NCBI RefSeq assembly: GCF_013122565.1
Contig: NZ_CP053258.1
Source of the DNA: Escherichia coli
Lineage (GTDB): Bacteria; Pseudomonadota; Gammaproteobacteria; Enterobacterales; Enterobacteriaceae
Strand: one strand, 5' to 3'
Length of the DNA: 64,000 nt
The notes under the pieces are model-generated. The model searched no databases. It was given only the letters and a program-made list of their open reading frames with translations, and was not told the DNA's origin. Position 1 is the stretch's first letter; each line of letters starts with the position of its first letter. Positions 3,332 through 62,096 of the stretch are shown here, piece by piece. The translations under genes and the position numbers were made by a program.

Positions 3332-3628
3332 GTGTTGTATGTTATTTACGCTCAAGACAAAGCTGATAGCCTCGAAAAACGCCTTTCCGTTCGTCCGGCA
3401 CATTTAGCACGTTTACAGTTACTGCATGATGAAGGTCGTTTGTTGACAGCTGGTCCAATGCCAGCGGTAGACAGTAACGATCCAGGGGCTGCGGGATTTA
3501 CTGGCTCAACCGTTATTGCTGAATTTGAATCGCTGGAAGCAGCTCAGGCCTGGGCCGATGCTGACCCGTACGTAGCGGCAGGTGTCTATGAACACGTTTC
3601 AGTGAAACCATTTAAGAAAGTGTTCTGA
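3332..3628 (+). CDS. yciI: YciI-family protein (98 aa, GTG start preceded by AAGGAG)
   Basis: [18 protein letters not shown] sequence recognised as YciI; SD aaggag 9 nt upstream of GTG at 3332. Confidence 0.9.
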
Positions 3629-39994: not shown

Positions 39995-40037
39995 TGTTTG
40001 AGGGGGCGTCTGACGCCCCACTATGAGGGAAGTTTAC

Positions 40038-40733
40038 TCAGGCGAATCCCGGCCGTAACACACCATCCGGATAATTCTCCGCCAGCAGTTTTTTTACCGA
40101 TACCAGCAAATCATTCAGCCCATCGTCCTGCATTCCCAGTTTGATAAGCTCCTGTTCCAGTGAAAACAGGTATTGTGCGTTGGTTCCCAGCGGACCGCTC
40201 GCCGCCGCAATCAACGGCGCGATGACCTGAGCGCGAGTGTCAGATTCATATTCTGGATGTCGCGGGTCCATAATAAACACAATGGCGTTTACTGTGCGTC
40301 CATCATCAAGATCAAGCTGACACCAGGTTGGCAGATAACAGCCGGTAATCATCTCGCGCTTCCACAACAGGGTTAGTTCCTGCTCCAGCGTCTCTTCTGG
40401 CAGTCGATAGGCGACGCCTGTGGTGCGTCCGCCCTCTTTCAGTGCAAGCATCCGTCCCGGCTGGTGCGCAGTCCCGCGCCCGGCGGTCAGGCGCAGGCAA
40501 AACGCGCGATGCCATCCAACCAGTGTACCGGTGCACGACTCGGTAAACTCCAGTGCCGGATTCCACATCAACGATCCATAACCGAAGATCCACACCGGTC
40601 CCTCATCAGGTCGACAAGCCAGCGTCGCCGCCAGCGAAGCCGCCCGTTGTTCTGCTGACCATAAGAGTGATTCTTCAATGGCACCAAATGCCGTTTTACA
40701 ATCGGCATTCATCAAGAAATCACGCGTTATCAC
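40038..40733 (-). CDS. chaC: Glutathione-specific gamma-glutamylcyclotransferase ChaC (231 aa, GTG start)
   Basis: YGSLMWNP motif and recognised ChaC sequence. Confidence 0.9.
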   Translation of the reverse strand: MITRDFLMNADCKTAFGAIEESLLWSAEQRAASLAATLACRPDEGPVWIFGYGSLMWNPALEFTESCTGTLVGWHRAFCLRLTAGRGTAHQPGRMLALKEGGRTTGVAYRLPEETLEQELTLLWKREMITGCYLPTWCQLDLDDGRTVNAIVFIMDPRHPEYESDTRAQVIAPLIAAASGPLGTNAQYLFSLEQELIKLGMQDDGLNDLLVSVKKLLAENYPDGVLRPGFA

Positions 40734-40890
40734 CTTACACCTCCGCCACTGCATGCTTCCCTGCGACAACTTTTTGGTGTCTTCCGGACATTTTTACTGC
40801 TCATTTTGAAACCACTAACGCGACAATATGCAATCCGCGGACCACTTGCAAGGCAACACCGCACAAATAGCTTTAACTAAGCTACCGGTT

Positions 40891-41121
40891 TTACGATTTT
40901 TTATGCCATTTATCATCATCCCCTTTGGCATATTCATGCTTCACAGCAGCCCAGGCCACTTTATGCGCGGTTTCTTCGCGACTGGCGTCATCACGCCGAT
41001 CTTCTTTATCTTTATATTGATCCCATGCGCTGTTGAACGCTTCTTTATAGATATCCTGGGCATGAGACGGTAGAACGTGCTTTACGCTTTCCGGCAGGTC
41101 GCTTTTCGTTTTATACGGCAT
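40891..41121 (-). CDS. chaB: Cation transport regulator ChaB
   Basis: 76-aa ORF MPYKTKSDLPESVKHVLPSHAQDIYKEAFNSAWDQYKDK recognised. Confidence 0.93.
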   Translation of the reverse strand: MPYKTKSDLPESVKHVLPSHAQDIYKEAFNSAWDQYKDKEDRRDDASREETAHKVAWAAVKHEYAKGDDDKWHKKS

Positions 41122-41390
41122 CGTTGACTCCTTTTACAAAGTTGAACACTAAGTGTGGTCAACAATATCTACTCTTGCCAAAACATAAGAATTTTCATGT
41201 CAGACTGTTCTTAAGAAACGCTAAAACAAACATTGTCTAAACGTATTACTTATTTTTATGCCCAAATGAGTAAAAAATCGACAGCGCGGTAAAAATTCGT
41301 AAAATGTTACCGATATCCAGACACTTTCTGTTATTTTTCCTACCTATTTTTTACATTTTCGATAAATTCATCTGCAAAGGGATAACCATA

Positions 41391-42491
41391 ATGTCAAATG
41401 CTCAAGAGGCGGTAAAAACCCGCCACAAGGAGACTTCGCTTATTTTCCCGGTTCTGGCGCTGGTAGTGCTGTTCCTGTGGGGAAGCAGCCAGACACTACC
41501 AGTGGTCATTGCCATCAATCTTCTTGCGCTTATTGGTATTTTAAGTAGCGCCTTTAGTGTTGTCCGTCATGCGGACGTATTAGCCCATCGCCTGGGAGAA
41601 CCTTACGGTTCGCTTATTCTTAGCCTTTCAGTGGTTATTCTTGAAGTCAGTTTGATTTCAGCTTTAATGGCAACCGGCGACGCCGCGCCAACGCTAATGC
41701 GTGATACGCTCTATTCGATCATTATGATTGTTACCGGTGGGCTGGTCGGCTTTTCATTATTGTTGGGCGGTCGTAAGTTTGCCACCCAATATATGAATCT
41801 GTTTGGTATCAAGCAGTATTTAATTGCGCTGTTCCCCTTGGCGATAATCGTACTGGTATTTCCAATGGCTCTGCCTGCGGCGAATTTTTCAACCGGTCAG
41901 GCGTTACTGGTAGCATTAATTTCTGCGGCAATGTATGGCGTATTTTTGCTGATCCAGACCAAAACGCATCAAAGTTTGTTTGTCTACGAGCACGAAGATG
42001 ACAGTGATGACGACGACCCGCATCACGGTAAACCGTCTGCCCATAGCAGCCTGTGGCATGCTATCTGGTTGATTGTCCATCTGATTGCTGTTATTGCAGT
42101 CACCAAAATGAACGCCAGCCCGCTGGAGACTTTGCTCGACAGCATGAATGCCCCTGTCGCCTTTACTGGCTTCCTGGTGGCACTGTTGATTCTGTCGCCG
42201 GAAGGTTTAGGTGCGTTAAAAGCAGTGTTGAACAACCAGGTTCAGCGCGCGATGAATCTGTTCTTTGGTTCAGTGTTAGCAACCATTTCGCTTACCGTAC
42301 CTGTCGTGACGCTAATTGCCTTTATGACGGGTAACGAATTGCAGTTTGCACTTGGTGCGCCAGAAATGGTGGTGATGGTGGCCTCTTTAGTGCTGTGCCA
42401 TATCTCCTTCTCCACCGGACGTACTAACGTGCTCAATGGCGCAGCGCATCTGGCACTGTTTGCCGCCTATTTGATGACGATATTTGCCTGA
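41391..42491 (+). CDS. chaA: Ca2+/H+ (Na+/H+) antiporter ChaA (366 aa)
   Basis: MSNAQEAVKTRHKETSLIFPVLALVVLF; multi-TM with acidic HEDDSDDDDPHH loop; ATG at 41391. Confidence 0.95.
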   Translation: MSNAQEAVKTRHKETSLIFPVLALVVLFLWGSSQTLPVVIAINLLALIGILSSAFSVVRHADVLAHRLGEPYGSLILSLSVVILEVSLISALMATGDAAPTLMRDTLYSIIMIVTGGLVGFSLLLGGRKFATQYMNLFGIKQYLIALFPLAIIVLVFPMALPAANFSTGQALLVALISAAMYGVFLLIQTKTHQSLFVYEHEDDSDDDDPHHGKPSAHSSLWHAIWLIVHLIAVIAVTKMNASPLETLLDSMNAPVAFTGFLVALLILSPEGLGALKAVLNNQVQRAMNLFFGSVLATISLTVPVVTLIAFMTGNELQFALGAPEMVVMVASLVLCHISFSTGRTNVLNGAAHLALFAAYLMTIFA

Positions 42492-42780
42492 CAGTTATAT
42501 CTCCTCCGATGACGAAAATCGGGGGAGATAATGTAAATTCCTGCTTATTTTATTTCTTCATACTACCTGGACAGGTCGTTAATCAGAATTGCGAGCCTGT
42601 ACCACAACCTGCACGAAAACACTGCAACAGCTGTTGAAAAACCGGAATGTACTCTTTATTGCAAACATTTCAGGAATGAAGTGAAGATGAATTGAGACGT
42701 AGTATCCACACCAAGCCGGCGTTATCCGGTGAGGCGCAATGTTGCGGGGGCTTTATCCCTGGTGGCATTGGTTGCTGGAA

Positions 42781-42848
42781 AGAGAAAACCCCCGCACGTT
42801 GAGAGGTACAACCTGACAACAGAACGGGGGCTAATCTTGAACCAGAAC
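42781..42848 (-). ncRNA. rdl: Candidate Rdl-type antisense RNA (antitoxin of Ldr), ~66 nt; ends approximate
   Basis: Minus strand has -35 TTGTAA / 17 bp / -10 TATTCT, then a ~66-nt unit ending in CCCCCG...CGGGGG hairpin plus UUUUCUCUUU, placed antisense in the ldr leader. Confidence 0.45.
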
Positions 42849-42895
42849 AATTCAAGAATAGCCGCAAAATGTTGTCATTACAACAAGGCGGCTAT

Positions 42896-43003
42896 ATGAC
42901 GCTCGCGCAGTTTGCCATGATTTTCTGGCACGACCTGGCAGCACCGATCCTGGCGGGAATTATTACCGCAGCGATTGTCGGCTGGTGGCGTAACCGGAAG
43001 TAA
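42896..43003 (+). CDS. ldr: Ldr-family type I toxin peptide (35 aa)
   Basis: ATG at 42896; translation MTLAQFAMIFWHDLAAPILAGIITAAIVGWWRNRK, a single TM helix with basic tail; below the ORF-track length cutoff. Confidence 0.85.
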   Translation: MTLAQFAMIFWHDLAAPILAGIITAAIVGWWRNRK

Positions 43004-43151
43004 GGTGAAAACGGGCGTCAGGCTGCCGTGATGGCAATATGCGCCCGAAACCGGCCGCAGGGGTAACAGCCTGCGGCCTTTTTTGTATCCGGCACCCATG
43101 AAAAAAGTCTTAACGCAGAACGCTAATACTTTATTTTTCAAGCAAAAAAAA

Positions 43152-44015
<864 letters not shown>

Positions 44016-55451: not shown

Positions 55452-55507
55452 TTAATTTGTTGTCTCATGAGGTTTCGCTAAATCTCATGAAGAGCGCAAA
55501 AGTATAT

Positions 55508-55536
55508 AAAATCCACGCAATTGCGTGGATTTTTCA
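55508..55536 (+). terminator. Rho-independent terminator of pth-ychF
   Basis: Perfect palindrome atccacgcaattgcgtggat followed by ttttt. Confidence 0.85.
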
Positions 55537-56295
55537 TTTCACCGAGTCCTAACCATTCTTGTAACATCCTACACTTTTGTGCTTATTGCCTACAGTGACC
55601 ACGAGAATAATTAAAGACATAAGTGTTCAGATGACGGATATCTCATTAGCAGTGGATATAACGTAAGTTTGTGTTCCACTACACATCAGCCCTCTTCACA
55701 GCTGATCAATATTGATCACGCTCCAATATGCTGGCGAGAAAAGGACTTACCTGAAGGGTAATATCCCGCAGATAAAGTCCCCGAATAACGAGATTACGTG
55801 CGATCCTGGCAAGATGAAAATGATAACCAATAGCACGATAATAACGATATGCCAGAAAATCCATTGATCAAAAATGAATATCGATGTTTTTTGCTTTTTC
55901 TTATTAGTAATGCAAAAATGGCGCATATTGTTTTTGTTATGCAGATACATCAAGCGAAAATCCCATAACTAATTAGGATTATTACCAAAAAATATTCACC
56001 AAATTATTTAACCGCTGTTTGTTGTAATGTTTTTGTCATATTCATAGTAACGAATTGGAATAAGTAACGACAACTTAGGGAATAACTCGATCTAAACTCA
56101 CCTTTGTAAGGGGGATGTTAAATATATATTAATTCCTGTGTTCCTGATTTTGCCCGGTAATAGAGAATTATTCTCAGAGAAGCTCATCATGATTGCACCA
56201 TACAAATATCATGATGATAAGAGGATATTATTCATTGACTTAAACAAAATGACAAAATCCATAGACCCATAGCCTGGGTACTATATAGGAGTGGT

Positions 56296-59181
56296 ATGGG
56301 CATCAAACAACACAATGGGAATACCAAAGCCGATCGTCTCGCTGAATTAAAAATCCGTTCGCCCTCAATTCAACTGATAAAATTTGGCGCTATTGGTTTG
56401 AATGCAATTATCTTTTCCCCCCTGCTGATAGCTGCTGATACAGGAAGTCAATATGGCACCAATATTACTATTAATGATGGTGACAGAATTACAGGAGATA
56501 CCGCCGATCCATCAGGAAACCTCTATGGTGTAATGACCCCAGCAGGAAACACGCCTGGCAATATCAACCTGGGTAATGATGTCACCGTCAATGTCAACGA
56601 CGCCTCTGGATATGCAAAAGGAATCATTATTCAGGGCAAAAACAGCTCCCTGACAGCTAACCGACTCACAGTAGATGTTGTTGGTCAAACCTCTGCCATC
56701 GGCATTAATTTAATTGGTGACTATACCCATGCTGACTTAGGCACAGGCAGCACCATTAAGAGTAACGATGACGGCATCATTATTGGGCATAGCTCAACAC
56801 TAACAGCCACTCAATTCACCATTGAAAACTCGAACGGTATAGGCCTAACCATCAATGACTATGGCACCAGTGTCGATCTTGGAAGCGGAAGTAAAATCAA
56901 GACCGATGGAAGTACAGGTGTTTATATCGGTGGTCTCAACGGCAATAACGCCAATGGTGCTGCGCGTTTTACGGCGACAGACCTGACAATCGATGTTCAG
57001 GGCTACAGCGCCATGGGGATAAACGTACAGAAAAACTCTGTTGTCGATCTCGGAACAAACAGTTCCATTAAAACCAGTGGCGATAATGCACACGGCCTCT
57101 GGAGCTTTGGCCAGGTTAGCGCGAATGCACTCACTGTTGATGTAACTGGAGCCGCGGCCAATGGCATCGAAGTTCGTGGTGGTACAACCACTATCGGTGC
57201 AGATAGCCATATTTCTTCCGCGCAGGGCGGTGGTCTCGTAGCCAGTGGTTCAGACGCGACAATCAATTTTTCTGGCACGGCAGCGCAACGAAACAGCATC
57301 TTTTCCGGCGGTTCTTATGGTGCATCAGCCCAGACGGCAACGGCTGTTATCAACATGCAAAATACCGATATTACGGTTGATCGTAATGGCAGTCTGGCGC
57401 TGGGGTTGTGGGCGCTCAGCGGCGGTAGAATAACCGGAGACAGTTTGGCTATCACCGGCGCGGCAGGAGCCAGGGGGATTTATGCCATGACCAACAGCCA
57501 GATCGATCTCACGAGCGATCTGGTCATTGATATGAGTACACCCGACCAGATGGCCATCGCAACGCAACATGACGATGGTTATGCCGCCAGCCGCATCAAC
57601 GCCTCGGGTCGTATGCTTATCAACGGTAGCGTTCTCTCCAAAGGTGGGCTAATCAATCTGGATATGCACCCTGGGTCGGTTTGGACAGGTTCCTCCCTCA
57701 GCGATAATGTCAATGGCGGGAAACTGGACGTTGCAATGAATAACAGCGTCTGGAACGTAACAAGTAATTCTAATCTCGACACGCTGGCGCTGAGCCATTC
57801 AACTGTCGATTTTGCCAGCCACGGGTCAACTGCCGGCACATTTACCACATTAAACGTAGAGAACCTGAGCGGTAACAGTACCTTTATTATGCGTGCTGAT
57901 GTTGTTGGCGAGGGTAATGGCGTTAATAATAAAGGGGATTTATTGAATATCAGCGGGAGTAGTGCTGGTAATCACGTATTGGCTATCCGCAACCAGGGCA
58001 GCGAGGCCACTACGGGAAATGAAGTTCTGACAGTGGTAAAAACCACTGACGGTGCGGCCTCGTTCAGCGCGTCTTCTCAGGTTGAGTTGGGAGGATATCT
58101 GTACGATGTGCGTAAAAATGGCACTAACTGGGAGCTTTACGCTTCCGGGACAATTCCGGAGCCGACTCCAAATCCTGAACCAACGCCGGCTCCCGCTCAG
58201 CCTCCCATAGTCAACCCCGATCCTACGCCTGAACCCGATCCTACGCCTACCCCCACTCCCACACCTAAACCCACCACGACCGCAGATGCTGGCGGCAATT
58301 ATCTCAATGTCGGTTATTTATTGAACTATGTTGAAAACCGTACGCTGATGCAACGGATGGGTGACCTGCGAAATCAGAGTAAAGACGGTAATATCTGGCT
58401 GCGCAGTTATGGGGGAAGCCTGGACTCCTTCGCCAGTGGCAAACTTAGCGGCTTTGACATGGGTTACAGCGGTATCCAGTTTGGTGGGGATAAACGTCTC
58501 TCTGATGTAATGCCGTTGTATGTCGGTCTGTATATTGGCTCAACACATGCATCGCCGGACTATAGCGGAGGCGACGGTACCGCACGTTCAGACTACATGG
58601 GAATGTACGCCAGTTACATGGCACACAACGGTTTTTACAGCGATCTCGTTGTAAAAGCATCGCGCCAGAAAAATAGCTTCCACGTACTGGACAGTCAGAA
58701 CAACGGCGTTAACGCCAACGGCACTGCGAATGGATTGAGCATCTCCCTGGAAGCCGGGCAGAGGTTCAACCTGACCCCTACTGGTTATGGGTTCTATATA
58801 GAGCCGCAAACCCAGCTCACATACAGCCACCAGAATGAGATGGCTATGAAGGCGAGTAATGGTCTCAATATACATCTGAATCACTACGAATCGCTGCTGG
58901 GGCGTGCCAGTATGATACTGGGATATGACATCACCGCAGGCAACAGCCAGCTGAATATGTATGTGAAGACTGGCGCTATCCGCGAGTTTTCAGGGGATAC
59001 AGAATATCTGTTGAACAACTCCCGGGAGAAGTACAGTTTCAAAGGTAATGGCTGGAATAACGGCGTGGGAGTCAGTGCACAGTATAACAAACAGCACACA
59101 TTCTACCTCGAAGCGGATTACACGCAGGGTAACCTCTTTGATCAGAAGCAAGTCAACGGAGGATATCGCTTCAGCTTTTAA
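56296..59181 (+). CDS. ycgV: Type Va autotransporter adhesin (YcgV-like): passenger beta-helix, Pro/Thr linker, C-terminal beta-barrel
   Basis: 961-aa ORF with repetitive G/T/N/S-rich passenger, PEPTPNPEPTP...TPTPTPTPKP linker, and barrel ending in aromatic-terminal GGYRFSF. Confidence 0.9.
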   Translation: MGIKQHNGNTKADRLAELKIRSPSIQLIKFGAIGLNAIIFSPLLIAADTGSQYGTNITINDGDRITGDTADPSGNLYGVMTPAGNTPGNINLGNDVTVNVNDASGYAKGIIIQGKNSSLTANRLTVDVVGQTSAIGINLIGDYTHADLGTGSTIKSNDDGIIIGHSSTLTATQFTIENSNGIGLTINDYGTSVDLGSGSKIKTDGSTGVYIGGLNGNNANGAARFTATDLTIDVQGYSAMGINVQKNSVVDLGTNSSIKTSGDNAHGLWSFGQVSANALTVDVTGAAANGIEVRGGTTTIGADSHISSAQGGGLVASGSDATINFSGTAAQRNSIFSGGSYGASAQTATAVINMQNTDITVDRNGSLALGLWALSGGRITGDSLAITGAAGARGIYAMTNSQIDLTSDLVIDMSTPDQMAIATQHDDGYAASRINASGRMLINGSVLSKGGLINLDMHPGSVWTGSSLSDNVNGGKLDVAMNNSVWNVTSNSNLDTLALSHSTVDFASHGSTAGTFTTLNVENLSGNSTFIMRADVVGEGNGVNNKGDLLNISGSSAGNHVLAIRNQGSEATTGNEVLTVVKTTDGAASFSASSQVELGGYLYDVRKNGTNWELYASGTIPEPTPNPEPTPAPAQPPIVNPDPTPEPDPTPTPTPTPKPTTTADAGGNYLNVGYLLNYVENRTLMQRMGDLRNQSKDGNIWLRSYGGSLDSFASGKLSGFDMGYSGIQFGGDKRLSDVMPLYVGLYIGSTHASPDYSGGDGTARSDYMGMYASYMAHNGFYSDLVVKASRQKNSFHVLDSQNNGVNANGTANGLSISLEAGQRFNLTPTGYGFYIEPQTQLTYSHQNEMAMKASNGLNIHLNHYESLLGRASMILGYDITAGNSQLNMYVKTGAIREFSGDTEYLLNNSREKYSFKGNGWNNGVGVSAQYNKQHTFYLEADYTQGNLFDQKQVNGGYRFSF

Positions 59182-59394
59182 GTACGGGGTAGACAAGCCC
59201 TTAAACGATGCTGAAAAATGTTAGCGTGCGCCGGAATGAAATATAGATCATCCTGGTGTAATTAAGATCATGCGGAGGTGCGTCAACGCCTCCGCGCCTT
59301 TCACCAAAAAGTCATTGATGGAGGGGCAGGGTGATTACTCAGTCTCATTGGAATAATCTTTGTAAATTAACAAACTTGATCGTAAGGATATCAG

Positions 59395-59688
59395 ATGGCT
59401 ATTACCTATATCGTTGTTTTAACCTATGTAAAACCACTCAGCGAAGTCGATGAGCAAATTCCGGCTCATATCGAATGGTTAAAAAAAGGTTATTCAGATG
59501 GTGTTTTTCTCGCATCTGGAAGAAGAGTACCCCGCAATGGGGGCATCATTCTAGCTCAATGCAATGATATTCATGCTTTAGAACAACGCCTGAGTCAGGA
59601 TCCATTCCGAAAGAGTGGGATCGCGGAGTCAGTAATTATTCCGTTTGAAGCCAGTATGAAATCAGAAGCATTACAGGATATTTTTTAG
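59395..59688 (+). CDS. YciI-family (Dabb-like) small protein, 97 aa
   Basis: ATG at 59395 preceded by aaggatatcag; product ITYIVVLTYVKPLSEVDEQIPAHIEWLKKGY...DPFRKSGIAESVIIPFEA parallels yciI motifs (PAHxxxL, DPY/F, VxPF). Confidence 0.7.
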   Translation: MAITYIVVLTYVKPLSEVDEQIPAHIEWLKKGYSDGVFLASGRRVPRNGGIILAQCNDIHALEQRLSQDPFRKSGIAESVIIPFEASMKSEALQDIF

Positions 59689-59949
59689 TTATCACATGGA
59701 TGAGGTGAACCATCGATTTGGTTCAACTCACCGAAATAATTACACCTATTACGTGGTGGGTAAATGCGAACGTTATCGTGCCACAGAACCGGCCTGTATA
59801 ACTATTTTCAGATAAGCTCCTGCCGATAATTCTGCGGATCATGATATTCTTGACTATCTATCGTCAGTTATCACCCGTGATTTACTGCTTAGATACCGGT
59901 GAGGACTAAAAAACTATTATGTGGCGCACATAATGATTTTTTCTATCTT

Positions 59950-61869
59950 TCATACCCGGCGCTTAAACTGCCCTGCATCAATGCCATGTTGCTTCATTTT
60001 CCGCCACAGCGTAGTGCGGCCGATTCCAAGTAAAGCCGACATTTCCTGAATGCGACCGCCTGTGACCTGGGCTGCGTTAATAATTGCCTCTTTTTCAACT
60101 TCCGCAAATGACAGACTGGTGGAAAGGCGTGTGGCGCTGACATCATCTGTCGCCTGCTCGGTAAACAGATGTTCCGGCAAATCACTGACGCGAATGCGCC
60201 CATTATCACTACTCAGAGCAAGATTCTCGATGACGCTGTAAAGTTCAAAATCGTTGCCTGGCCATGCACAAGAAACCAGGCGAGCGAGGGCATCGTCATC
60301 AATTTTCAGCCGCGTAGAGAAGCGTTTTTCAAGACTGAGTAATTTGTTATTCACCAACGCCGGAATGCTGCCACGCCGCATACGCAGAGGCGGGATGGTA
60401 ATTTCAAATGCATGCAACGCGTAATACAGCTGGCGACTAAAACGATTTTGTTCCACCAGCATTGCGAGGTCCGCGGTCGTTGTGGCAATCACTTTGACAT
60501 CAATTGGTATTAAACGCCGCGCATCCAGTCGCGTGATAACACCCTGCTTGATAACCTGAAGCAAAGCAGACTGTAACTCCACCGCCAGATATTCAATCTT
60601 TTCAAGAAACAGCGTGCCGCCGTGCGCCAGTTCCAGCCGACTCAGACGGCCATTTTCATTGTCCGTGCGATCGCCACCAATAAATTCTTCCACCAGCGCC
60701 GCATCACCATATAACTCACAATTGACGGCGATATAAGGACCTGCAGCACGCTCGCTTTCATTATGAATTGCCTGACTTAGCAGTGCCTTTCCCACGCCCT
60801 CTTCTCCACAAAGCAGGACAGGAAAGCTACTGCGCGCCGCCTGGCGACCAAAATGAATCAAGCGGCGGGTTTGCGGATCGTCCTGTGGCATATGAGCGAA
60901 GGTATGGCTGACTTTTCCTAATTGACTGGTCATTAACTGCCGCATCTGTTCCACAGGATGGAGCAACAAAATAAAGCTGGTTCCCTGCGTTTCTATTATC
61001 GGTTTAAGGGTTATCACCGCATCAATAAACTGGTGCTGGCTTTCAAAGGTTGCTTCTACGTGTTTGAGCGGATGTGCCTGTTTTATTGCTTGTTGCAATA
61101 CGGCGGGTAACGTTAAGAGTTCAGTGATTGCCCTTCCCTGACTTGCCGTCGCGTCAAGGCGCAAGACCCGCGCCGCCTGGGCATTGATAAATTGCAAATT
61201 ACCCTGCTCGTCCCAGCTAATCACGCCATCATCCATACTTTCTAACAGGGCATTAAGTTGATTTAAATGACGGTTAGTTTCAGCGAGCAAACTGTCCGTC
61301 AGCAGTAAATTTCCGACCTCGCGGGCGATTGCCAACGTCAACGGCAAATCAGCTGCGGTAGTTTGCTCAACCGGACACGCCAGCGCTATTGTTCCCGTCA
61401 ATCGGCCCTTGCTGTCAAACAACGGCGTTGCACAAAAGGCCCAGTTCCAGAGTGCCTGTTTGAAATGTTGATCGGCCATCGTTTTCACGGCCTGACCAGA
61501 GATAGCCGCTAACGATAGCGCACAAGTACCAATAATTCCCTCGGCGCAATACGTGCCGTCATTGAATCCCAGTGCACTTAGCTGCTGCAAGGTTTGCGGA
61601 TCGCCATTACGGCTGAGAATGCAGGCGGTTTCATCGAGAATAAACAGCGCACACTCTCGCGGTGCCATATATTCCCAGGCATCTTCCAGCGCAGCCTGCC
61701 CGAGCGTCAGCATCGCTTTCTTACGCCGATAAATAGAAGCAAATGTCACGCCCTGGGCCTGATGTGGTACGTTCCATGTCTCCCGTTTCATCAGTTTATT
61801 GCATCGCTCCCAGGAGGTTGCAATTAAGGGTGATATGCCCCGACCATCGTTGTTAAAAGCGCCACTCAT
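59950..61869 (-). CDS. dhaR: Dihydroxyacetone kinase operon activator DhaR (639 aa; alternative ATG 3 codons upstream at 61878)
   Basis: GAF/PAS N-terminus, AAA+ central domain (GEEGVGK), C-terminal HTH; recognised sequence. Confidence 0.93.
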   Translation of the reverse strand: MSGAFNNDGRGISPLIATSWERCNKLMKRETWNVPHQAQGVTFASIYRRKKAMLTLGQAALEDAWEYMAPRECALFILDETACILSRNGDPQTLQQLSALGFNDGTYCAEGIIGTCALSLAAISGQAVKTMADQHFKQALWNWAFCATPLFDSKGRLTGTIALACPVEQTTAADLPLTLAIAREVGNLLLTDSLLAETNRHLNQLNALLESMDDGVISWDEQGNLQFINAQAARVLRLDATASQGRAITELLTLPAVLQQAIKQAHPLKHVEATFESQHQFIDAVITLKPIIETQGTSFILLLHPVEQMRQLMTSQLGKVSHTFAHMPQDDPQTRRLIHFGRQAARSSFPVLLCGEEGVGKALLSQAIHNESERAAGPYIAVNCELYGDAALVEEFIGGDRTDNENGRLSRLELAHGGTLFLEKIEYLAVELQSALLQVIKQGVITRLDARRLIPIDVKVIATTTADLAMLVEQNRFSRQLYYALHAFEITIPPLRMRRGSIPALVNNKLLSLEKRFSTRLKIDDDALARLVSCAWPGNDFELYSVIENLALSSDNGRIRVSDLPEHLFTEQATDDVSATRLSTSLSFAEVEKEAIINAAQVTGGRIQEMSALLGIGRTTLWRKMKQHGIDAGQFKRRV

Positions 61870-62096
61870 ATCCCGCATCCCTTATGACAAAAGGTGTTCC
61901 GGCTCGCAATTTTAAGTATTAATACACGTATAAGTTTCAATATGGAACATTCATTAAAGCATATGTTTCACTATGAAACATAATTTGGGCTAATTTTCTT
62001 TTCCCTTGCCTGATGCACAATGGATTCATCGGCAGTCAGTGGTCGCCGTGTCGTTGAACATCATCCATGCCCTACCGTAATTGCTGGAGCAAAATA

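Follow-up and report, generated by a model that had tools for sequence, protein, structure and literature searches.

Why does one strain of Escherichia coli carry 768 bp of DNA between ycgV and dhaR, where K-12 has 99 bp, and from where did the additional DNA come? The question was raised by a 64,000-nucleotide stretch of contig NZ_CP053258.1 (NCBI RefSeq assembly GCF_013122565.1), which we call the window. The two genes are convergent: ycgV (56296..59181, plus strand) is a 961-amino-acid (aa) autotransporter open reading frame (ORF) with ~98.8% identity to annotated E. coli ycgV, and dhaR (59950..61878, minus strand) is an ORF annotated as dhaR in matching E. coli. The spacer between them (59182..59949) contains an extra segment of 669 bp (59273..59941) with an intact 97-aa gene of the YciI family (59395..59688, plus strand). 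Based on the observations described below, we suggest that this segment is quite probably the decayed remnant of an IS1202-family element of the ISAba32/ISAjo2 subgroup, in which the YciI-like gene was the passenger. We use the term tIS ('transporter' insertion sequence) for such an insertion sequence (IS) carrying a passenger gene. The original prediction, made from the sequence alone, had described an AT-rich region with a second, divergent YciI-family gene, a strong stem-loop just after ycgV and a much shorter gap in K-12, and had tentatively proposed that the region is a small acquired islet. The descriptive part proved correct in each point, and the proposed origin had to be modified.

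The additional DNA was placed at 59273..59941 by alignment against short-spacer E. coli. The ycgV-dhaR spacer of K-12 was indeed only 99 bp long, without the segment, and that of ST866 was likewise 99 bp. The ycgV-proximal part of the spacer (59182..59272) is common to ordinary E. coli, with 59182..59251 being the same as in ST866 and 59252..59272 being homologous and strongly diverged. When 5,426 complete E. coli genomes were compared with 59182..59949, 3,937 of them matched just the first ~79 bp (59182..~59260), and no match to 59260..59949 was obtained in any of them even by sensitive blastn. The segment is thus missing from every one of these genomes as well as from K-12 and ST866. It was also not matched by any of 50,697 phage records, and plasmid records gave only YciI genes at 68% identity, in Serratia and Klebsiella. 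Since no GTDB species representative, other Escherichia species included, has a homologue above 72%, the segment is rare everywhere. The low G+C content was confirmed as well. It is 0.414 for the spacer and for the extra segment, compared with 0.499 for ycgV, 0.511 for dhaR and 0.496 for the whole window, and a scan across the window showed that only 4.6% of 669-bp intervals are equally AT-rich. The strain itself belongs to a lineage that is ~1.1-1.2% from every complete genome, and none of the 5,426 represents that lineage. The flanks of the segment are ~98.8% identical to E. coli, a 4-kb piece from chaA to kdsA (40000..44000) reached at best 98.9% identity to any of the complete genomes, and the best identities for 40000..44000 and 58000..61500 together were 98.8-98.9%.

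The 97-aa ORF begins with ATG, and its product is identical to WP_171459468.1. This exact protein (WP_171459468.1/QJU24472.1) was found in one E. coli genome and in one SRA run with the same locus. It matched the Pfam family YCII (PF03795) over profile positions 3-92 of 95 with 51.8 bits (E = 1.2e-13; cut-off 24), and the true yciI of the window (3332..3628) matched the same profile with 114 bits. The two proteins are only ~21-23% identical in an alignment, and pairwise BLASTP gives no meaningful alignment. They are thus related at the level of profile and fold only, and the description of the gene as clearly divergent was right. In addition, the scores against the NCBIfam YciI equivalogs NF009504 and NF009507 were 18.6 and 17.2 bits, far below the cut-offs of 134 and 149, indicating that the protein belongs to a paralogous subfamily and is not a second YciI. 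The AlphaFold2 model built from 53 homologues (predicted local distance difference test score, pLDDT, 95.9; predicted template modelling score, pTM, 0.86) shows an alpha+beta fold of ferredoxin-like type, arranged in the order beta-alpha-beta-beta-alpha-beta. Its best Foldseek matches in the PDB were HI0828/YciI (1MWQ; template modelling score, TM, 0.76), TftG (4LBP; TM 0.75) and ClcF (TM 0.72). His25 and Asp69 are invariant in the 53 aligned homologues, the true YciI of the window included, and the His/Asp pair is the proposed catalytic site of the YCII family (literature cited in PMC7641849). No match for the protein was found among the PADLOC defence families or the PHROGs phage families.

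The DNA directly after the YciI-like gene contains the relic of an IS1202-family transposase gene (59686..59795, minus strand), in which the last codons of the gene are fused in frame to an internal piece (aa ~116-150, ...RIYPPRNRCNYFGELNQIDGSPH). The minus strand from 59768 to 59700 encodes RIYPPRNRCNYFGELNQIDGSPH, which corresponds to transposase aa 128-150 with 78% identity (tblastn with three tIS transposases, E ~5e-8), and weaker similarity to the transposase extends back to ~59795. The final codons of the relic, PCDN*, correspond to PFNN* of the intact element and overlap the YciI stop codon in the same way. At the DNA level, blastn aligned 59337..59699 to tIS at 88-89% identity and then 59700..59768 at 72-74%, the latter corresponding to a part of the transposase gene located ~910 bp further in. 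About 110 bp of the gene are left, and ~300 transposase codons are deleted. Since the relic is in frame and its stop codon overlaps that of the YciI-like gene, a transposase gene was once present here in the tIS arrangement and lost ~300 codons.

Intact elements with this arrangement were found elsewhere. The closest proteins (86-93% identity) form one 90% cluster, and in all contexts examined their genes lie inside a mobile element or its remains, except for an Escherichia copy (93%) on contigs L034 and L035, which is described below. The passengers of the intact elements are 86-91% identical to the 97-aa protein. One 91% homologue (P0105) is part of a 1,902-bp unit recurring at 99.6-100% identity in at least 6 plasmid and chromosomal contexts, among them plasmids of Rep3, MobA and IncFII background and positions beside igaA and hipA on chromosomes. 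The YciI-tIS spans 2500..4401 in L007 and 2066..3966 in L036. The unit encodes a 457-aa transposase that matches NF033594 ('ISNCY family transposase') with E = 1e-148, and its ends are TGT...ACA with two GTGACAT-type repeats per end. The YciI-tIS are flanked by 5-bp duplications (ATGTA in L005, ACGGG in L036), and on the transposase side a dif-like site follows, with its XerC arm at a distance of 5 bp from the element; two such sites are TGTGCGCTTAA-GCATGT-TTATGTTAAAT and GGTGCGGATAA-TCTATC-TTATGTAAGAT. Two more tIS variants with 452-aa transposases carry the same YciI gene. In the intact elements the two genes are arranged tail to tail with overlapping stop codons, and the YciI gene occupies the interval from the 3' end of the transposase gene to the right inverted repeat. 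The related elements (L005-L010, L036-L043) have the transposase family, the TGT/ACA ends, the 5-bp duplication and the dif-like site that characterize ISAba32/ISAjo2 in the IS1202 family, and the same ends, duplication and insertion behaviour at dif-like sites have been published for this subgroup (Harmer and Hall group, PMC10132070; Siguier et al., bioRxiv 10.1101/2022.12.17.520857). The tIS members ISKpn21, ISKpn63, ISKpn65 and ISRel10 each carry one passenger ORF, which was called hypothetical and was without a Pfam function (same references).

Some further features of these elements were observed. The YciI-tIS copies L005, L007 and L009 have swapped flanks: the left flank of L007 is that of L005, its right flank is different, and the sequence 'tcagt' is found beside different ends in L007 and L009. 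This exchange suggests recombination between IS copies at different dif-like sites. In L063 and L064 (4306..5664), the transposase is split into ORFs of 118 and 333 aa by a frameshift or stop, and the YciI gene is intact. In K. pneumoniae plasmid NZ_CP094480.1 (L060, 634..2843), a related ISNCY/IS1202-family transposase gene (~74% nucleotide identity) is followed, roughly at the place of YciI in tIS, by a gene for a TIR-domain protein. Other passengers, possibly of defence type, may occur in relatives.

The passenger has outlived its transposase more than once. A relic between purF and ubiX (L017-L020) retains a full right IS end, the YciI gene and just 46 bp of transposase sequence, the copies in Morganella were cut by IS21, and a copy on an IncFII plasmid was cut by an IS6-family (IS26-like) element. 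Together with the present locus, these are at least 4 independent cases in which the transposase was lost and YciI was kept.

The age of the arrangement at this locus can be judged from a second Escherichia lineage, represented by L034 and L035, short contigs from SRR26188678 and SRR26188679. They contain, in order, the 3' end of ychF (~95% identity to E. coli), what is left of the ycgV 3' part with an IS scar, the same spacer with the YciI gene, and the 3' end of dhaR; the region corresponding to 59693..59842, transposase relic included, is missing. Between the window and L034, the YciI gene is 93.9% identical (93% for the protein; synonymous divergence, dS, 0.18; ratio of non-synonymous to synonymous divergence, dN/dS, 0.20), the non-coding DNA inside the segment 72-78%, and the flanks outside it 81-87%. 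Since gene and flanks are similarly diverged, the insertion is old, and its residence at this site is about as long as the divergence time of the flanks. Measured against the tIS copies, dS is 0.31-0.46 for the window and 0.33-0.49 for the purF-ubiX relic with its full IS end. The relic is thus as far from the tIS copies as the window is, indicating that the tIS layout is no younger than the split. JGI metagenome contigs were searched with two pattern scans, and no more copies with Escherichia-type flanks were obtained.

These data bear on the simplest form of the islet proposal, in which this strain, or its close ancestors, recently gained a small islet in an empty ycgV-dhaR spacer like that of K-12. 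Such an event would explain why the segment is missing from the 5,426 complete genomes and why the exact protein is limited to one genome and one SRA run, and it would agree with the low G+C content and with the close homologues on active IS. However, neither IS ends nor a target duplication is present, and the transposase fragment is only 72-78% identical to the IS-borne copies, compared with 88-89% for the gene. Moreover, the same arrangement occurs in a lineage whose flanks are ~15% diverged, matching the divergence within the segment, and the supposed insert contains a hairpin that is orthologous to that of E. albertii and missing in K-12. We therefore regard recent acquisition as quite unlikely. 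What remains of the original proposal is the foreign, mobile-element origin, which follows from the transposase relic and from the close homologues riding on IS; a simple recent drop into an empty K-12-like site does not stand. Instead, the lack of IS ends, the ~110-bp relic, the synteny with L034 and the shared hairpin make it more likely that the K-12 state is the derived, deleted one.

The hairpin in question is at the right end of the segment (59908..59942). It is a palindrome with an A-tract, a 9-bp stem and a T-tract (AAAAAACTATTATGTGGCGCACATAATGATTTTTT) that folds on both strands and resembles a bidirectional terminator. Its folding free energy is -10 to -12 kcal/mol, with z of -1.9 and -3.1 for the two strands. 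The hairpin has an AT-rich stem and is not in the list of the consensus scan. The version in L034 is much more stable (-26.8 kcal/mol, z -5.5). The motif ATTATGTG-N3-6-CACATAAT occurs as a single copy in the window and once per ychF-dhaR spacer in L034/L035, L052-L056 and E. albertii (L057-L059). E. albertii has no ycgV, and its 160-bp ychF-dhaR spacer contains the hairpin. The L052 lineage (DhaR 94% identical) has the hairpin and, in the place of ycgV, a small His-rich lipoprotein-like ORF (MKKTFIFSLLAIVFASLLSAC...). A stem of 12 bp is identical in E. albertii, the L052 lineage and L034, the window retains 10 of the 12 bp, and some of the flanking sequence is shared. The palindrome is absent at the K-12 and ST866 loci. 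The right-end hairpin is thus an orthologue of the one found between ychF and dhaR in other Escherichia, and it is ancestral, with ycgV and the YciI relic located on its ychF side; ordinary E. coli has lost the stem. Since K-12 is without this ancestral hairpin, a deletion has probably produced the short spacer there.

A single deletion of ~666 bp, from 59273 into the T-tract, yields the K-12 sequence. We consider it probable, on this evidence, that K-12 represents the derived, deleted state. Alternatively, the hairpin could have been lost separately and the relic inserted later at the same point, which fits the divergence data worse. One point weighs against a single deletion: a poor alignment is possible between the hairpin region and the last 29 nucleotides of the spacer in K-12. 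The haplotypes of the flanks speak equally for retention and for re-import of the segment in this strain: the four informative sites between K-12-like and ST866-like flanks split 2:2 against the L034 outgroup, and the flank differs from ST866 by 1 mismatch in 152 nucleotides, about as a divergence of 1.2% predicts. In the ychF-dhaR interval as a whole (55452..59949 in the window; L052-L059, L034), the cargo differs, comprising none, the lipoprotein-like ORF, ycgV, or an IS-scarred ycgV remnant, and the interval looks like a recurrent site of integration and deletion.

Here, we need to consider several observations that weigh against the interpretation as a tIS remnant. The IS-related part can be demonstrated for 59337..59795 only. 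For the outer parts, 64 bp on the left (59273..59336) and ~145 bp on the right (59796..59941), no significant resemblance to tIS ends was obtained (z 0.6-1.3 for 59273..59336 and 59843..59941). When 59240..59340, 59769..59949, 59273..59336 and 59843..59941 were compared by local and global alignment with the ends of two tIS variants and of the purF-ubiX relic, the alignments were no better than those of shuffled sequences. Neither inverted repeats nor TGT/ACA termini were found at the edges of the segment, and there is no 5-bp target duplication; the junctions, ...GATCAT|GCGGAGG and ...GATTTTTT|CTATC, have no common repeat. There is also no convincing dif-like site. A dif-like target beside the segment was considered on account of a single XerC-arm-like 11-mer, GGCGCACATAA (59923..59933; 9 of 11 positions by eye), and was dropped for the missing XerD arm; by our own estimate, ~0.2 such matches are expected per segment by chance. 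The transposase relic is short, with 23 aa that are solid and ~35 aa that are arguable. In L034, every trace of a transposase is missing, leaving room for a native gene at the locus, and the L034/L035 contigs are just ~1.2 kb. Finally, no consensus-scan match to a sigma-70 promoter was found upstream of the YciI-like gene.

Could the gene then be an old chromosomal gene of Escherichia that was picked up by an adjacent IS1202-family element, thereby founding the YciI-tIS? The gene without a transposase in L034 and the outer parts that are unlike IS ends would be expected in this case. The boundaries of the shared module (59337..~59692) are the same in all contexts, which would also be compatible with capture, as would the existence of related IS without YciI, to which homology begins just beyond the YciI gene. 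On the contrary, a plain IS landing beside a native gene should have left its right inverted repeat between the relic and the gene, and none is present; the window shows the finished tIS junction with overlapping stop codons instead. In addition, the purF-ubiX relic with a full IS end is as distant from the tIS copies as the window is, and none of the GTDB species representatives, other Escherichia species included, has a close homologue. Based on these points, native capture seems unlikely, and the decayed tIS is the explanation that we retain. The recurring 356-bp module had also raised an integron cassette or another site-specific cassette as a candidate; this was rejected, as the module recurs in tIS and in relics of tIS, where sequences of IS ends are present.

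We then asked whether the YciI-like gene is more than a leftover. The dN/dS ratio is 0.20 in the comparison with L034 and 0.12-0.16 in those with the IS-borne copies, in which dS reaches 0.45, and by this measure the gene is under purifying selection (0.12-0.20). A functionless, decaying ORF that is conserved merely for lack of time might be expected from its location in a decayed element, from its presence in very few genomes and from the missing promoter consensus. However, the ORF is intact next to a transposase gene that lost ~300 codons, and the dN/dS values just given also speak against a leftover. The His/Asp pair and core residues are invariant as well, and conservation in all contexts extends to the 58-bp leader and its Shine-Dalgarno site. 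It is thus very unlikely that the gene is without function.

As to what the function is, the product would most likely be a cofactor-independent small-molecule enzyme, an isomerase or dehalogenase by type, from which the host and not transposition would benefit; this view derives from the family (TftG, ClcF) and from the genomic neighbours of distant members, which hint at redox or detoxification settings. We also put forward, tentatively, that the YciI-like protein may be the component of the element under selection rather than inert cargo, either a host-beneficial enzyme spread by IS and domesticated, or a factor of Xer/dif-linked transposition. This possibility is suggested by its being the passenger of at least 3 dif-targeting IS variants, by its intactness in at least 4 cases of transposase loss, and by purifying selection in Escherichia over a span comparable to species divergence.

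The distant members of the subfamily (55-73% identity) occur in varied settings. In K. pneumoniae, one is located beside arsRBC, superoxide dismutase and oxidoreductase genes, on a Serratia plasmid another is beside ABM-monooxygenase, GNAT and DoxX genes, and still another follows a type II secretion operon. Two further settings were noted. A 71% homologue (5001..5294 in L026-L033) is present in 440 contigs of Enterobacteriaceae, always 76 bp 3' of a MobA/MobL relaxase gene, and the surrounding DNA resembles a mobilisable element that has integrated into the chromosome. Another 71% homologue, in Citrobacter (L021-L025, 3124..5964), lies in an islet of ~2.8 kb with an 85-aa ORF and DinI-like, DUF1440 and YciI genes, which is placed between two permease genes of a potABCD-like operon.

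The remaining features of the spacer were examined from left to right. The stem-loop just after ycgV, GCGGAGG-N10-CCTCCGC, is present at exactly the predicted position (motif 59272..59295; hairpin 59271..59296, plus strand) and marks the left junction of the segment. It occurs as a single copy in the window and folds with -18.3 kcal/mol (z = -3.8), a value that none of 200 shuffled sequences reached. It is followed by GCCUUUCACC without a U-run, unlike an intrinsic terminator. Because the 16-nucleotide 5' arm is absent in the L034 lineage, the stem-loop does not belong to the conserved unit. All close copies, whether on an IS, in a relic or in L034, are homologous to the window at the DNA level from 59337 onwards, the first position of a 58-bp upstream module (59337..59394, plus strand) that accompanies the gene in every context and contains the Shine-Dalgarno sequence AAGGA 7 nucleotides 5' of the ATG. 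Directly 3' of the YciI stop codon, a hairpin (59698..59732, plus strand; -17.4 kcal/mol, z = -3.6) extends across the junction that the internal deletion left in the relic; it is probably incidental, and it could act as a transcript-end structure. Beyond the relic, 59796..59907 is non-coding DNA without significant similarity to IS ends, of which 59843..59907 is common to L034. No known RNA family was found in 59100..60050 at E <= 1. On the other side of ycgV, the ychF-ycgV intergenic region (55452..56295, 844 bp) has a G+C content of 0.355, locally 0.30, and is more AT-rich than the YciI segment; such low G+C is typical for horizontally acquired adhesin loci.

Taken together, we suggest the following order of events. 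In an ancestral Escherichia, a tIS, or DNA derived from one, would have come between ycgV and the old ychF/dhaR terminator hairpin. Deletions would then have destroyed the transposase gene, leaving ~110 bp in this strain and none in the second lineage, and the recognisable ends would have been lost. The passenger gene and its 58-bp leader would have been kept intact by purifying selection. Most E. coli, K-12 included, would later have lost the relic and the hairpin stem through the ~666-bp deletion, giving the 99-bp spacer, and the present strain may have kept the old state or may have regained the segment through homologous recombination. The YciI-like gene would be translated from its own Shine-Dalgarno sequence, and its transcript would be terminated at the hairpin 59908..59942.

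For E. coli genomics, these results indicate that a rare lineage preserves an older state of the spacer, with a terminator hairpin lost in ordinary E. coli, and that the 99-bp spacer of K-12 is probably a scar. For the biology of mobile elements, a name and a fold (YciI family with the His/Asp pair) can be given to a passenger of dif-targeting IS1202-family elements, and the repeated survival of this passenger beyond its transposase makes its function a testable question. The major picture is unchanged. The segment is rare yet fairly ordinary accessory DNA, and a tidy example of gene delivery by an IS followed by domestication and loss.

When we compared the locus with known systems, it resembled the strain-variable cargo found in spacers at convergent gene ends of E. 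coli, with the same sub-kilobase presence/absence, AT-richness and traces of mobile elements. It differs from ordinary spacer islets in that the common allele here is seemingly the deleted one and the rare allele keeps the ancestral terminator hairpin. The 97-aa protein shares the PF03795 match, the fold (TM 0.74-0.76) and the His/Asp positions with YciI, HI0828 (1MWQ) and TftG (4LBH/4LBP) of the YCII family; it is only ~12-23% identical to them, and, unlike YciI, it belongs to an Enterobacterales subfamily carried largely on mobile DNA (tIS, DNA beside MobA relaxase genes, plasmids and islets). With tIS of the ISAba32/ISAjo2 subgroup, the window shares the passenger gene, which likewise lies tail to tail with what is left of the transposase gene. 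It is not itself an IS, as it holds only a fragment of an IS1202-type DDE transposase and has no ends, duplication, dif-like site or working transposase. The elements L005-L010, L036-L043 and L065, on the other hand, share with this subgroup the NF033594 transposase, the TGT/ACA ends, the duplications, the targeting of dif-like sites and the single passenger ORF. Among the named members, ISKpn63 has ends (supplement of bioRxiv 10.1101/2022.12.17.520857) that resemble those of the YciI-tIS, and ISKpn65 is listed with 1980 bp compared with ~1901 bp for the YciI-tIS. The passengers of the subgroup were published as hypothetical, whereas the passenger described here is a clear YciI-family protein.

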